From IMG/VR virus record IMGVR_UViG_3300032082_001293: a DNA stretch of 64,000 bases; one strand, written 5' to 3'. The translations under genes were made by a program, and so were the position numbers. The notes under the pieces are model-generated. The model was not told the DNA's origin, did not search any database, and saw only the letters and a list, made by a program, of their open reading frames with translations. Origin of the DNA: a virus. Below, piece after piece: positions 6,403 through 24,184 of this stretch (position 1 is its first letter; each line of letters opens with the position of its first letter).

Positions 6403-6827
6403 TTATGATGCTGCCAAAGTTTATCGGAACCGCCCAGATGACCCCAATCAGAATCAGCGGTCATCTTACTACTTATTCCTCCTCTCGGAGCAAACTCAAT
6501 CTCTATACGCAATCGTTCTGGTGTGTACATCGCATAAAGTTGTTGATACATTACATCAATACATCGTTCATAACTTACAATGATATCACGATACTGATAG
6601 ATGTATTCTTTTAACGATTTGAGTTCAATGGTCTTTTTGTCGCCATAAAACCAAATGGTGATGTTCCCAAAATCTGGTTGACCTTTGACTCCCAGAAAAG
6701 TAAATTCTGGAATAGAAATTCTTTGTTCATACCCTTTACTTGGATTGGGAAGTGCCTTGAGCAACGAACCCGTAATTTCGCCCCAAAGTTTATTCTGTGC
6801 TTTGTTTGAGTTTGGTTGTGTCTTCAT
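6399..6827 (-). CDS. QueF-like T-fold protein lacking the catalytic Cys
   Basis: PEFTFLGVKGQPDF, IELKSLKEY, YE, PRGGIS align to QueF motifs. Confidence 0.8.
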   Translation of the reverse strand: MKTQPNSNKAQNKLWGEITGSLLKALPNPSKGYEQRISIPEFTFLGVKGQPDFGNITIWFYGDKKTIELKSLKEYIYQYRDIIVSYERCIDVMYQQLYAMYTPERLRIEIEFAPRGGISSKMTADSDWGHLGGSDKLWQHHK

Positions 6828-7200
6828 GTTTCATCCTATAATCATTAATCGCTGCTTTTATCGCATCTTCGGCAAGTACACTACAGTGGATTTTGACGGG
6901 GGGGAGGGCAAGTTCTTCTGCGATGTCGGTGTTTTTAATATTCCCAGCTTCATCAAGACTGCGACCTTTAACCCATTCGGTAAGGAGGGAGGAAGAAGCG
7001 ATAGCACTTCCGCATCCGTAGGTTTTAAACCGAGCATCTTCGATAATTCCATCATCATTCACCTTTATCTGTAATCTCATTACATCGCCACAGGCAGGCG
7101 CTCCCACCATACCTGTGCCGATATCTTCATCGTCTTCGTCAAAACGACCAACGTTACGAGGGTTTTCGTAGTGGTCCATTACTTTATCACTATATGCCAT
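6790..7200 (-). CDS. iscU: Fe-S cluster scaffold IscU
   Basis: YSDKVMDHYENPRNVG, GAPACGDVM, FKTYGCGSAIASSS, LPPVKIHCSVLAEDA. Confidence 0.97.
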   Translation of the reverse strand: MAYSDKVMDHYENPRNVGRFDEDDEDIGTGMVGAPACGDVMRLQIKVNDDGIIEDARFKTYGCGSAIASSSLLTEWVKGRSLDEAGNIKNTDIAEELALPPVKIHCSVLAEDAIKAAINDYRMKHEDTTKLKQSTE

Positions 7201-15489: not shown

Positions 15490-15625
15490 CTTTCTTTACC
15501 TCTTCGTCGTTTGATTGTTCGGCATCATCATTAAAATAATGTTTTGTCCAATCATGATGAAGAGGGGCTACACCATTCACGGGAGCCTCATGCAACATTT
15601 TCACATCAGATTCTTTGTTACTCAT
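15467..15625 (-). CDS. hypothetical protein, 52 aa
   Basis: Manual ORF MSNKESDVKMLHEAPVNG... filling the gap, overlapping start/stop. Confidence 0.5.
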   Translation of the reverse strand: MSNKESDVKMLHEAPVNGVAPLHHDWTKHYFNDDAEQSNDEEVKKDGSKENS

Positions 15626-16455
15626 TTTGTTGTGTCTTTGGGTTTCTCAGGATTAAGATGACCTACACGTTTTTCGCCTGGACGCAACTTGGAAAGTTTA
15701 GTAACTCGACCTGCCTTTGAAGCATCGTCGTGACCTTTTTCTTCTGTGTCATCGACTTCGGGATTCTCCATATCATGGTCTTTCGCCATATCCTTTGCCG
15801 CTTTACCCTTATACTTGTCAAGCATGGTTTCACCCTTTGCAGCACCCTTAGAACGTTCTGCGTAGGTCTTACCTTCTTTCATTTTTTTCTTAGAAGCGTG
15901 TGAATGATTCTTTTCTGAGACAATCGTGAGTTCTTCGACAGGAACATCAAACTCAACACCGTGTTCAAACATTACATCGTAGTGAGTGACGATGGCAGTA
16001 CCGTCTTCTTGTTCTACTAATGTATGTTCGCCCGGAATACACTCACCATAACCCCACTGTTCAGATGTTACGTGTGATGCACAATCGTGCTTGAGAGCTT
16101 TAGTTGCTGACTTATCGTCCATATCTTCTTCAGACATTTTCTTCTTTTCAGCAGAGTCGTACTTAGAACATTCGGGGTCGTGATTCTCTGAAGAACCGCC
16201 ACACTCAGCACACTTCTTCATACCATCCTTATCCATATCCTGTTCGACTTCTTCACTCTTAGCAATTGCCTTACGACGCTTGTGAAGATACTCATCTGAT
16301 GAATCGACATCACCATCATTGTCGATGTCTTTGTCATCACGGTCAGCGTGTTTGCCTTTCAATTCATCTTTATCGACAGGATCAAGTTTTTTATTTTTTT
16401 TCTCAACAACTTCCTGCCAAGCTGCTGTGATACTATCAATTAATTTACGATCCAT
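15622..16455 (-). CDS. probable prohead core/internal head protein
   Basis: Highly charged; DKDIDNDGDVDSSDEYLHKRRKAI and HYDVMFEHG modules typical of T4-like head proteins. Confidence 0.6.
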   Translation of the reverse strand: MDRKLIDSITAAWQEVVEKKNKKLDPVDKDELKGKHADRDDKDIDNDGDVDSSDEYLHKRRKAIAKSEEVEQDMDKDGMKKCAECGGSSENHDPECSKYDSAEKKKMSEEDMDDKSATKALKHDCASHVTSEQWGYGECIPGEHTLVEQEDGTAIVTHYDVMFEHGVEFDVPVEELTIVSEKNHSHASKKKMKEGKTYAERSKGAAKGETMLDKYKGKAAKDMAKDHDMENPEVDDTEEKGHDDASKAGRVTKLSKLRPGEKRVGHLNPEKPKDTTK

Positions 16456-16770: not shown

Positions 16771-17034
16771 TTATTCCTGAATGTCTATTACTAAATCGTT
16801 CATTCCTTTAATGACTCTATGATACATCATTGCAGGAATATGGTATTGTTCACCTTCTATTAACTCTATCGGCAATTCACCATTGTACTGCAACTGCCAA
16901 CCTTGTCCTTCTAATACCGTGATAACTCTATCTTGTCTATCACGATGCCATTCAAACTCTTCGGATTGATTGTGTATCGTTCTTATACTTTCGTTATCAG
17001 TATAAGGTTTACCAGAAGTAGTTTCCACCACCAC
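16771..17034 (-). CDS. small cupin-fold protein
   Basis: WHRD, VLEG, HIP...YHRV. Confidence 0.7.
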   Translation of the reverse strand: MVVETTSGKPYTDNESIRTIHNQSEEFEWHRDRQDRVITVLEGQGWQLQYNGELPIELIEGEQYHIPAMMYHRVIKGMNDLVIDIQE

Positions 17035-17416
17035 TCAATCCTAATTGTTTTGCATAACGAGGTAAACGACACGCCCAATAGGCTGCCGTTGTCTTATCAT
17101 TCTGTTGCGAACACTTATGTCTCGCAGCAAACGACTTACGGGCTTTAGGGTCATTCAACTTAACCTTTAACCCTGTAGTATCTCCCCAAGTAACTTTCTT
17201 AATGTTACCCGTTGAGGGGTCCTTGACATATACGTAATACTTTTTAGGACCACCTGCCTTTGGTTTGTTCAACTCAGGTTGCGCCTCTTCAAACATAGGT
17301 CGTTCAAGAGGAACGTTTCTACCTTCGAACAAAGCGAACTCTGGTTCGGCATCAAAGTCGGGTTCACGGCAATCGTCGCAACACGCTTCGTTAATAAACG
17401 CCTTAAATGTTTTCAC
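17009..17416 (-). CDS. internal head protein-like
   Basis: Leader MKTFKAFINE; KSFAARHKC...AYWAC module. Confidence 0.7.
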   Translation of the reverse strand: MKTFKAFINEACCDDCREPDFDAEPEFALFEGRNVPLERPMFEEAQPELNKPKAGGPKKYYVYVKDPSTGNIKKVTWGDTTGLKVKLNDPKARKSFAARHKCSQQNDKTTAAYWACRLPRYAKQLGLSGGGNYFW

Positions 17417-19032
17417 TTAGCTTTCCCTAAGATTTTCCATACCGCTGATGCCAACTTAGCAACAGGCATCTTTTCCATTTTCTTTTTGTTTGCATCATTG
17501 ACTTTATCATATACAGTCAAGATTGCGTTAGCAGTCTGCATGTCCAGACCTTTCTTTGCACCTTTGTTCTTAACAACATCACGTGCAAGGTCAATAGCGT
17601 TTGCTTCATCAAGTTCGACTGATTCATTCATTGACTTGATATGACTAATCGCAGCCTGCTTTGCTTTGGTAAATGATTGAAAGGTTTTCCACTCTTTCCC
17701 GTCAATGTGCACAACAACGGGGTCAGTCATCTTTTTGCCTTTACGGAGATGTGTGTGAGTGTGGTCTTTACCATTCGCATCCTTGTAAACATAGGAAGCA
17801 ATAAATTTCATTCCTGCGGGAACCTTCGATGCTTCGTTGACCGACTCAACGTACATATTCAACTCGTACTTGCGACCTGTGTTGTACACTTGAACGTGAA
17901 GGTTCTGTTTCTTGTCTGTCTTGAGAATATGCGATACGGTTTTGCCAGTCGAAGGTTTTCTTGGGCCTGATGCGACTTTACTATCGATTTCATCAGGACG
18001 AACAGTTACACCATGTTTCTTCTTAGCATGGGCATATGCGTGTTGCATTGCCGCAGAATACGTATCGTGATAGATGTCATATCCAGTCGCAGACTTACCA
18101 GCATCTCTTTTTTCTTCGATTGACTCTTTGATGCTGTAGGAATTGATAGTCGCTCCCATATCACCCAATGCGAGGGTTGCGTCTTCACCATCTCGACTAT
18201 AAAGATGGAACTTCATTCCACCAGGCTTATTGGGGTCAACCATATTGACCTTATCAACGTTGTACTTTGCACTGCGTGATTTACCTTTCACCATGAAGGT
18301 ACGTTTAGTGCTACCTCTAATGCCAGAACCATAATCGATTGTAATCATGGAACCTTTCTTGAGCTTGTCAAAATCTTTACGAGACACTCTGGTTGCTTCA
18401 TCAAGTTCGACTGATTCTTTTGCATACTTCTTCTTAATCTTGTCGTATGTGACACCAGAATCGATTGCCTTCTTGACCATCGCCTTTGCTTGACCTTGAG
18501 GAACCTTATACTTCTTCATCACCATCTGAACTGCTTGGTCCATGTTCTTAGATGAACCGATAGTTGTCAGAATGTCTTTGATATCTTTGATGGTTGTTTC
18601 ATCAAGTGACTCAAGCGTGTTAGGAAAATCTTGATTTACTTGGTCGGTTGCTTCTTTTACTTTATCAGGAAGACCTTTGTGTTTTGTCTTTGCAAAATCT
18701 TTGACATCCTTTTTCTTCATCGTCTTAGCTGCTTGAGCAACTTCGGGAGAAGGTGCGTCCATTTCACCTTTCTGCACAGCACGAACCATACCCATAAACT
18801 TTTGCTGTTGTTTCGATACTGACTTCTCGTCAAGTTTTCCACGAAACTGTTCAAATGTGTAGGTCGCTTTTGAAATGTCGGATTTATCCACAGTAACTTT
18901 TTTCCCTAAAAATTTTAAAAGGTCCATGACTTTCTTAAAGTTTCCTTTCTCGATATAAGTTCCCGCAACGTGTTTTGCTGCGTTCTTAAAATCTTTTTGT
19001 CTAACTTTAAGAGATTCTTTTTTAATGTTCAT
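17413..19032 (-). CDS. modular Lys-rich polyprotein, probable internal head protein
   Basis: Six (L/I/V)xE linkers; DUF3008-like module KSVSKQQQKFMGMV. Confidence 0.7.
   Translation of the reverse strand: MNIKKESLKVRQKDFKNAAKHVAGTYIEKGNFKKVMDLLKFLGKKVTVDKSDISKATYTFEQFRGKLDEKSVSKQQQKFMGMVRAVQKGEMDAPSPEVAQAAKTMKKKDVKDFAKTKHKGLPDKVKEATDQVNQDFPNTLESLDETTIKDIKDILTTIGSSKNMDQAVQMVMKKYKVPQGQAKAMVKKAIDSGVTYDKIKKKYAKESVELDEATRVSRKDFDKLKKGSMITIDYGSGIRGSTKRTFMVKGKSRSAKYNVDKVNMVDPNKPGGMKFHLYSRDGEDATLALGDMGATINSYSIKESIEEKRDAGKSATGYDIYHDTYSAAMQHAYAHAKKKHGVTVRPDEIDSKVASGPRKPSTGKTVSHILKTDKKQNLHVQVYNTGRKYELNMYVESVNEASKVPAGMKFIASYVYKDANGKDHTHTHLRKGKKMTDPVVVHIDGKEWKTFQSFTKAKQAAISHIKSMNESVELDEANAIDLARDVVKNKGAKKGLDMQTANAILTVYDKVNDANKKKMEKMPVAKLASAVWKILGKAK
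17601..17625. repeat. 25-bp direct repeat copy 1 (encodes ESVELDEA)
   Basis: ttgcttcatcaagttcgactgattc, identical to 18393-18417. Confidence 0.95.
18393..18417. repeat. 25-bp direct repeat copy 2 (encodes ESVELDEA)
   Basis: Identical to 17601-17625. Confidence 0.95.
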
Positions 19033-19038
19033 AACTTC

Positions 19039-19046
19039 TATTTATA
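19039..19046 (-). promoter_or_regulatory. T4-type late promoter
   Basis: TATAAATA immediately upstream of ORF 17413..19032. Confidence 0.75.
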
Positions 19047-19274
19047 TTACGCCAAATCTTTATCGTGATTGAGACCACCTTTCTTCTTTTTAACGATAAA
19101 CGCATTGACCCTAGCATATCCCCATTGTTGTGGAGTAGTGCCTGGACGATGGCCCGTTTTCCATGCAGCAACACCACGGTCATAAACTTTTTTTAATGTT
19201 GCCCTTGAAATACCAGACTTCGCAGCTTTGTCTGCGAGAGCGTCTTCGGTAATCACGTAATCTTTAAACTTCAT
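19047..19274 (-). CDS. DUF5824-like small protein with capsid-targeting-like leader, 75 aa
   Basis: Start reassigned to MKFKDYVITE; RGVAAWKTGHRPG.T.QQWGYARVN. Confidence 0.7.
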   Translation of the reverse strand: MKFKDYVITEDALADKAAKSGISRATLKKVYDRGVAAWKTGHRPGTTPQQWGYARVNAFIVKKKKGGLNHDKDLA

Positions 19275-23986: not shown

Positions 23987-24184
23987 TTATTTATAAATAT
24001 TTTTCCAGTATTCTTTTTTTCTCTCGGAACAAGCGTCAACAATGTGTTTTCTTTCGTTTTGGTCGAAGGTATCCCACCATTGAATCTCAGTTAACAAACG
24101 AAAACAACCGATGCACATTTCATCGGTATCTAAAACACAAACCCCCAAGCAGGGGGAGTATACGTAATCTTTTTTGGGGTTCAT
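23987..24184 (-). CDS. DUF1289-like Fe-S/Cys protein
   Basis: SPCLGVC.L..DEMC.GCFR...EI..W. Confidence 0.85.
   Translation of the reverse strand: MNPKKDYVYSPCLGVCVLDTDEMCIGCFRLLTEIQWWDTFDQNERKHIVDACSERKKEYWKNIYK
23988..23999. promoter_or_regulatory. T4-type late promoter (palindromic TATTTATAAATA)
   Basis: TATAAATA on both strands. Confidence 0.7.

Follow-up and report, generated by a model that had tools for sequence, protein, structure and literature searches.

The closest described counterparts of the locus considered here are the internal proteins (IPs) IPI, IPII and IPIII of bacteriophage T4 and its Alt protein, which are encoded by separate genes and cut once, beside a propeptide of 10-19 residues. 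In T-even phages, such genes reportedly form a hyperplastic locus (an account attributed to Repoila et al. 1994), within which they are said to be exchanged via conserved flanking sequence and sequence that encodes the capsid targeting sequence (CTS). The T4 prohead protease gp21 cuts after the Glu of an L/I-x-E motif (PMC9026906; 10.1101/2021.01.19.427310), and in the T4 CTS, MKTYQEFIAE, positions 4 and 7 serve targeting and positions 8 and 10 processing (10.1101/2021.01.19.427310; PMC9026906), with Asp at P1 (CTS position 10) blocking processing (PMC9026906). The element under study, P0001, is a mosaic open reading frame (ORF) at positions 17413-19032 (minus strand) of a 64,000-nucleotide stretch of IMG/VR virus record IMGVR_UViG_3300032082_001293, the whole of which is called the window below, and it encodes a Lys-rich protein of 539 aa (17% lysine, isoelectric point (pI) 9.7). 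The window is part of a 93.7-kb contig from a T4-like marine myophage that has not been cultivated and whose nearest cultured relatives are OM43 phage Melnitz and Pelagibacter phage HTVC008M; the Melnitz homologs of P0001 are annotated as hypothetical, and literature searches found no published account of these marine polyproteins. P0001 is read here, with fair rather than high confidence, as a polyprotein that this T4-like phage carries as cargo in its head, which is cut at the linkers between its modules and whose modules are shuffled there.

The course of events that we infer would begin with the (probably late) synthesis of P0001 and its loading into the prohead core. There, six (L/I/V)-x-E linkers would each be cut behind their Glu by the prohead protease, an enzyme of the gp21 type (Peptidase_S77). 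Seven basic proteins of 7-10.5 kDa would result, counterparts of the T4 IPs, and these would stay with the DNA and likely be ejected into the host. The acidic linker, E-E/S-V-E-L-D-E followed by A or K, would have two roles: as a peptide it would be the cleavage site, and as short, locally identical DNA at every module boundary it would mark the points at which in-frame recombination products form or persist, and phages would thereby gain, lose and reorder modules relative to one another.

The P0001 system is classed here as a variation on the T4 IP/CTS system. A T4-type S77 protease is encoded in the same genome, the junctions read (L/I)-x-E↓A (the arrow marking a cut or presumed cut), the products would be small, strongly basic proteins, and the leaders of neighbouring genes and of N-terminal module copies match MKTYQEFIAE at its functional positions. 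Whereas the T4 proteins are made from separate genes, P0001 joins seven unrelated units in one ORF with six predicted internal sites; moreover, no module is homologous to a T4 IP, and the P0001 N-terminus is not a canonical CTS. As in the T-even IP locus, cargo turns over via short conserved sequences at the cassette borders, but here the border is intra-ORF and in frame and encodes a presumed cleavage site, hence new polyproteins would arise and not new genes. Polyvalent proteins share with P0001 a multi-domain, highly variable architecture, and co-delivery with DNA, sometimes with processing, has been proposed for them (Iyer et al. 2017, PMC5512222). However, they carry recognisable enzymatic or anti-restriction domains and peptidase domains of their own, whereas the modules here are tiny and uncharacterised and the proposed cutter is a prohead protease acting in trans. 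No conflict domain (MuF, ArdC-N, MPTase or methylase) was found in P0001 by Pfam, PHROGs or PDB sequence search, and the survey of polyvalent proteins makes no mention of cyanophages, Pelagibacter or DUF3008 (PMC5512222). In phiKZ, 201phi2-1 and SPN3US, a diverged gp21-like protease likewise cleaves many head-internal proteins behind a Glu, in some cases more than once (PMC9026906), but the motif there is S/A-x-E (here P3 is L/I/V/M) and no shuffling linker or cassette architecture has been described.

Modules and their exchange at the linkers

Six (L/I/V)xE motifs in P0001, ending at Glu69 (GKLDE), Glu145 (ESLDE), Glu212 (ESVELDE), Glu307 (ESIEE), Glu400 (ESVNE) and Glu476 (ESVELDE), divide the protein into seven pieces of 63-95 aa (6.8-10.5 kDa, pI 9.2-10.0), which are mutually dissimilar except for the common linker. 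Five of the six junctions are of the [LI]xE type and one is VxE; all six [LI]xE sites of the protein lie at proposed junctions and none inside modules, and of the two V-x-E sites one is the junction at 400, the other being KVKE127 at the end of module 2. A first-pass annotation of the window had already described the length and strand of the ORF, the six sites and the seven unrelated Lys-rich modules, and all of these are confirmed from the sequence.

All seven modules are encoded on the minus strand. Module 1 (aa 1-69, 18826-19032) is N-terminal in nearly all relatives, has a low-confidence predicted fold and ends in the CTS-like TYTFEQFRGKLDE (residues 57-69). Module 2 (aa 70-145, 18598-18825) is a DUF3008-like, predicted three-helix unit with an 18-aa spacer and ends in ESLDE; its match to Pfam DUF3008 (PF11450) is weak (19.7 bits, cut-off 24), phrog_30268 matches it with an E-value of 7.9e-24, and precomputed PF11450 hits are recorded for several P0001 homologs. 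An extra KVKE↓A at aa 125-127 (18652-18660) ends the DUF3008 core and is followed by the 18-aa spacer and then ESLDE; in relatives, module 2 passes from GLPDKVKE directly into the next linker. Module 3 (aa 146-212, 18397-18597) ends in the first copy of ESVELDE, module 4 (aa 213-307, 18112-18396), a predicted small beta-barrel, in ESIEE, and module 5 (aa 308-400, 17833-18111), a predicted alpha/beta unit and the commonest module with 179 domain hits, in ESVNE. Module 6 (aa 401-476, 17605-17832) ends in the second copy of ESVELDE and is followed by module 7 (aa 477-539, 17416-17604), whose relatives were gathered and aligned by sequence. A MAFFT alignment of all seven module sets on the full protein stacked unrelated fragments, as happened with module 7 and module 1 fragments, and these alignments were not used.

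A word-filtered search gave 1990 homologs of P0001, many of them 80-96% identical across just 13-33% of the query, and 4647 clusters at 50% identity were related to it in an exhaustive search of cluster representatives (E up to 1e-3). When profiles of the seven module cores were run against 236 fetched homologs, the modules proved to be independent units that combine in many ways, among them the orders M4-M5, M5-M4, M5-M6, M6-M5 and M3-M7 (M, module), as well as M2, M4 or M5 at the N-terminus. Positional orthologs are present in three contigs, between common flanks (upstream DUF6267, a 145-aa gene, a nucleotidyltransferase and DUF5824; downstream a 135-aa gene and a cupin) of 70-93% nucleotide identity, yet their module sets differ, and only near-identical orthologs (96-99%) are colinear. 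Since the module sets differ in the three syntenic loci, the colinear arrangement that the first-pass annotation had named as the contrary case is not what these loci present, and the module exchange at linkers that it had proposed is borne out.

The breakpoints are visible in the DNA. In blastn comparisons with the window, the homologous tracts stop near aa 122-127, 141, 204-205, 214, 302, 306-307, 398 and 468-469, that is, at linkers or a few codons away; those that stop at 122-127 do so where the DUF3008 core gives way to the spacer. In contigs L004 and L006, a single linker, alignable to either copy in the window, connects module 3 with module 7. Relative to these two contigs, the window has an insertion of 792 bp that comprises modules 4-5-6 and is flanked by a 28-nt direct repeat, in which ESVELDEA copy 1 (18393-18420, minus strand) forms the left boundary and copy 2 (17601-17628, minus strand) the right boundary. 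The modules are genuine units of shuffling, and the breakpoints fall at the linkers.

The two ESVELDEA copies, whose identity at the DNA level had been pointed out before, are exact over 25 nt (17601-17625 and 18393-18417) and agree at 27 of 28 positions when extended, with 0 matches in 100 shuffles; given the peptide, the use of the same codons in both copies has a p-value of ~5e-4 under the codon usage of this genome. The repeat could be taken to mean that the linker matters as DNA alone, as a recombination joint like the flanks of the T-even IP genes, with no role as a peptide. Such a reading would accommodate a 25-28-nt repeat within a gene with the same rare codons, the minority codons TCA and CTT in every ESVELDE copy of the window's own lineage, the breakpoints at or within a few codons of linkers, and an exact 23-nt linker that joins unrelated modules in contigs L002 and L003, the other genes of which are only 66-76% identical. 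It is nevertheless very improbable, as the same peptide is written in many codon sets across IMG/VR and the variants EEVEIEE, ETLDE and SVNE retain just hydrophobic-x-Glu. In a degenerate scan, ESVELDEA occurred in at least 119 IMG/VR contigs, with 130 of 134 matches in open frames and 96 distinct module contexts, and its codons varied (Ser: TCT 40, TCA 26, TCC 23; Leu: CTT 50, CTG 23). The varying codons, open frames and many contexts argue for selection on the linker peptide, and the presence of the exact 23-nt linker in only two other IMG/VR contigs argues against a widely fixed DNA signal. Conservation of the linker is therefore primarily at the protein level, and its DNA identity is local and lineage-level; across phages it is the peptide that is kept. 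In the most economical reading, a constraint on the protein would preserve enough similarity in short pieces of DNA for these to serve as joints for recombination in frame. Recombination may be targeted at the linkers, or only linker recombinants may survive; either fits.

The linker as a putative cleavage site

In its sequence statistics, the linker behaves like a protease cleavage site. When the 22 residues upstream of every module copy were aligned, nearly all internal linkers ended in E-(E/S)-V-E-L-(D/E/N/T)-E, with Ala, Lys or Ser as the next residue. The motif [LIVM]xE was present at 244 of 265 unique internal junctions (92%) and at 35 of 35 N-terminal leaders, as against 11 of 3601 9-aa windows within module cores; at the junctions, P3 was L in 57%, I in 19%, V in 18% and M in 6%, and P1' was Ala in 40% and Lys in 22%. 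Within cores, [LI]xE was depleted about ninefold (7 observed vs 65.5 expected from within-core shuffles, with kinship ignored), and the depletion was seen in each of the seven unrelated families, whereas control motifs were undepleted (observed/expected 1.37 for [LI]xD, 0.97 for [LI]xK, 1.66 for Ex[LI] and 1.73 for [LI]E). Glu:Asp at +2 from Leu/Ile was 7:252 in cores vs 700:1735 elsewhere, and the D/E ratio was 2.8 in module cores vs 0.96 in the rest of the genome. The lengths of segments from one [LI]xE to the next in 229 homologs peak at 50-110 aa, while shuffles decay smoothly, and among ORFs of at least 120 aa the [LI]xE enrichment ranks ORF 6790-7200 first, followed by the scaffold protein and P0001.

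Avoidance of L/I-x-E in seven unrelated families with L/I-x-D remaining frequent, a general replacement of Glu by Asp in cores, and a CTS-like leader with the same LxE at the same module start would all go unexplained if P0001 were an uncleaved "beads-on-a-string" multidomain protein, packaged or cytoplasmic, whose acidic linker is a spacer or binding motif (for charge balance or partner docking) and resembles the gp21 motif by coincidence. This alternative is distinctly unlikely, even though acidic helical spacers are common, P0001 starts without a canonical CTS, and the proteome of cyanophage S-SCSM1 lists the homologous ORF92 without mention of processing (PMC9602691).

A candidate protease for the proposed cutting is encoded on the same contig about 1.5 kb past the window end, where a Peptidase_S77 domain (PF03420, E 7.8e-43) adjoins T4_CASP scaffold and Gp23. 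The gp23 of the contig has QLNE↓V in its N-terminal propeptide region, which we take to match the region in which T4 gp23 is cut at LTE↓A, and the contig's protease has VITE↓A. Where a module copy is N-terminal, its linker is swapped for a leader, MKxF(K/F)xLRE or similar (for example MKTLKELRE, MINFKQLRE or MKSFFTLRENTQVTE), and the start residue of the module is unchanged; in relatives, modules 2, 4 and 5 bear CTS-like leaders of this kind when they are N-terminal.

Leaders are also found on genes near P0001 (MKTFKAFINE, MKFKDYVITE, MIPSFKQFLVEE, MKTLSDFLTE and MLKFKQFISE). The downstream neighbour of 135 aa (17009-17416, minus strand, GTG start) has the T4 CTS-like leader MKTFKAFINE, and the upstream neighbour, a DUF5824 single-module gene of 75 aa (19047-19274, minus strand) with 75-aa homologs in L004 and L005, has MKFKDYVITE. 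In L003 (1591-4637, minus strand), from a related IMG/VR phage, the domain of the 135-aa gene follows the leader MKSFIEHLSE and is fused to a DUF6267 ligase-like N-terminus via SILE↓A, and the nucleotidyltransferase carries DUF5824 as a C-terminal fusion. Since the same domains are separate here and linker-fused in other phages, leader and linker look interchangeable. A 69-aa ORF (66138-66347 on the window scale, minus strand; L126:3110-3319) is located in the head-morphogenesis cluster about 2.1 kb past the window end, where it separates the S77 protease gene from the head gene that follows. It bears the CTS-like leader MKNFKEIRE↓A and has no Pfam hit; it was considered as a paralog of module 6 and dropped, as BLASTP and phmmer gave no similarity. 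Downstream of P0001, a 277-aa acidic/basic mosaic protein (15622-16455, minus strand), of which different stretches match several unrelated PHROG families, looks like a further modular member of the locus and has just one [LI]xE.

Homologs of the cluster are listed in a cyanophage virion proteome: S-SCSM1 ORF90-93 are annotated as virion proteins because mass spectrometry detected them in particles purified on CsCl (PMC9602691). Of these, ORF91 encodes a nucleotidyltransferase that starts with MKSFLQFLKE, ORF92 is a 520-aa Lys-rich protein with EEVELDE, and ORF93 (L001:3010-3219) is a stand-alone DUF3008 protein; according to the authors of the S-SCSM1 study, such transferases recur in cyanophage virion proteomes (PMC9602691). 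ORF93 is without an N-terminal leader and has the leader-like TFKEFLEYIE at its C-terminus. By analogy with T4 Alt, for which a C-terminal propeptide is known (PMC9026906), a targeting-like peptide may work from either protein end.

Several observations weigh against P0001 being loaded and cut as proposed. Its N-terminus, MNIKKESLKV, is no canonical CTS of the MKTYQEFIAE type, which makes the loading route hard to place, and TFEQF, which had been pointed out as a leader-like motif, does stand before the first site (residues 59-63) but is replaced by KIVIE in close relatives and hence is not conserved. The SVNE junction has Val at P3, beyond the strict L/I rule of T4, the depletion statistics in cores, though they agree across seven unrelated families, take no account of kinship within them, and the S-SCSM1 proteomics reports the presence, not the processing, of homologs (PMC9602691). 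No match in Pfam, PHROGs, PDB, Foldseek or VIA-align searches assigns a function to any module. The late promoter that the first-pass annotation had placed directly upstream is present as a motif, a T4 late-promoter-like box TATAAATA (19039-19046, minus strand) just past the stop of the DUF5824 gene; from this box, of which the window has 10 copies vs 3.1 expected, we infer late expression, and at 6 nt 5' of the ATG the transcript would be nearly leaderless. The boxes at 19039-19046 and 23988-23995 (minus strand) stand only 5-6 nt from the downstream ATG, with the same consequence for a transcript that starts at either, and other copies lie 22-27 nt upstream of their genes. The positional ortholog P0011 starts at the equivalent of Met36, without the first 33-35 codons of module 1 (L004:2995-3100 vs window 18933-19032), which suggests that the N-terminal half of module 1 is dispensable or that the start was mis-called. 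The support for cutting by the prohead protease, which was part of the original proposal, is indirect and comes from the junction motif and its avoidance inside modules, the S77 gene, the interchangeable leaders, the predicted disorder of the linkers and the homologs in a virion proteome.

Predicted module products and their possible roles

AlphaFold2, run on a 54-row alignment, predicted module 4 as a beta-barrel (pLDDT ~90) and module 5 as an alpha/beta unit in a confident model of the pair (mean predicted local distance difference test (pLDDT) score 81). In this model, pLDDT falls below 50 over the ESVELDEA and ESIEE linkers and the predicted template modelling score (pTM) is 0.49, which together suggest that modules 4 and 5 have no fixed mutual orientation; the model of modules 1-2 is poor (mean pLDDT 56), with a three-helix module 2 and both junctions below 50. 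The modelled linkers are thus predicted to be disordered. Foldseek searches with modules 4-5 against PDB and BFVD gave no credible match, and VIA-align returned only generic SH3/Tudor/KOW-like barrels for module 4 (Z at most 7.8, which the tool itself counts as background) and no match for module 5. PDB sequences yielded no hit in a profile search, and P0001 gave only sub-threshold DUF3008 in Pfam and only families of unknown function in PHROGs.

It is conceivable that P0001 is cut and packaged as proposed and that its products are structural, namely DNA-condensing or scaffold-like internal peptides without a host effector role. That the seven fragments are small and basic (pI 9.2-10.0), like the DNA-associated, highly basic T4 IPs (PMC9026906), and that no enzyme or inhibitor fold was found by Foldseek or VIA-align would suit such products, but the modules are extremely diverse and turn over strongly (4647 clusters, with differing sets in syntenic loci), a pattern more in keeping with a payload driven by conflict than with a generic counter-ion, and T4 IPI, itself a small basic internal protein, is a specific anti-restriction factor (PMC9026906); a purely structural role is considered somewhat unlikely. 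For the cargo reading as a whole, shielding of DNA charge on the one hand and host takeover or anti-defence on the other are possible roles of the modules.

The T4-like myophages that infect cyanobacteria, SAR11 and OM43 rank with the most abundant viruses of the sea, yet in them these genes carry no annotation beyond that of hypothetical protein. More tentatively, and at a little short of even confidence, it is proposed that marine T4-like phages (cyanophages, pelagiphages and OM43 phages) have an open-ended combinatorial cargo of thousands of small modules joined by a dual-purpose linker, at once a Glu-specific site for the prohead protease and a joint for in-frame recombination; the injected set would be drawn from a rapidly reshuffled library of cassettes and would not be a fixed set of IPs. 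If the cargo reading holds, a large and fast-evolving share of the genomes of these phages would encode proteins destined for the capsid, for cleavage there and for delivery into the host along with the DNA, and such cargo could be found by a sequence rule, namely a leader or linker ending in hydrophobic-x-Glu together with avoidance of Glu inside modules. One short sequence would then couple proteolytic release with modular evolution, and many candidate injected proteins would become available for host-takeover or counter-defence screening.

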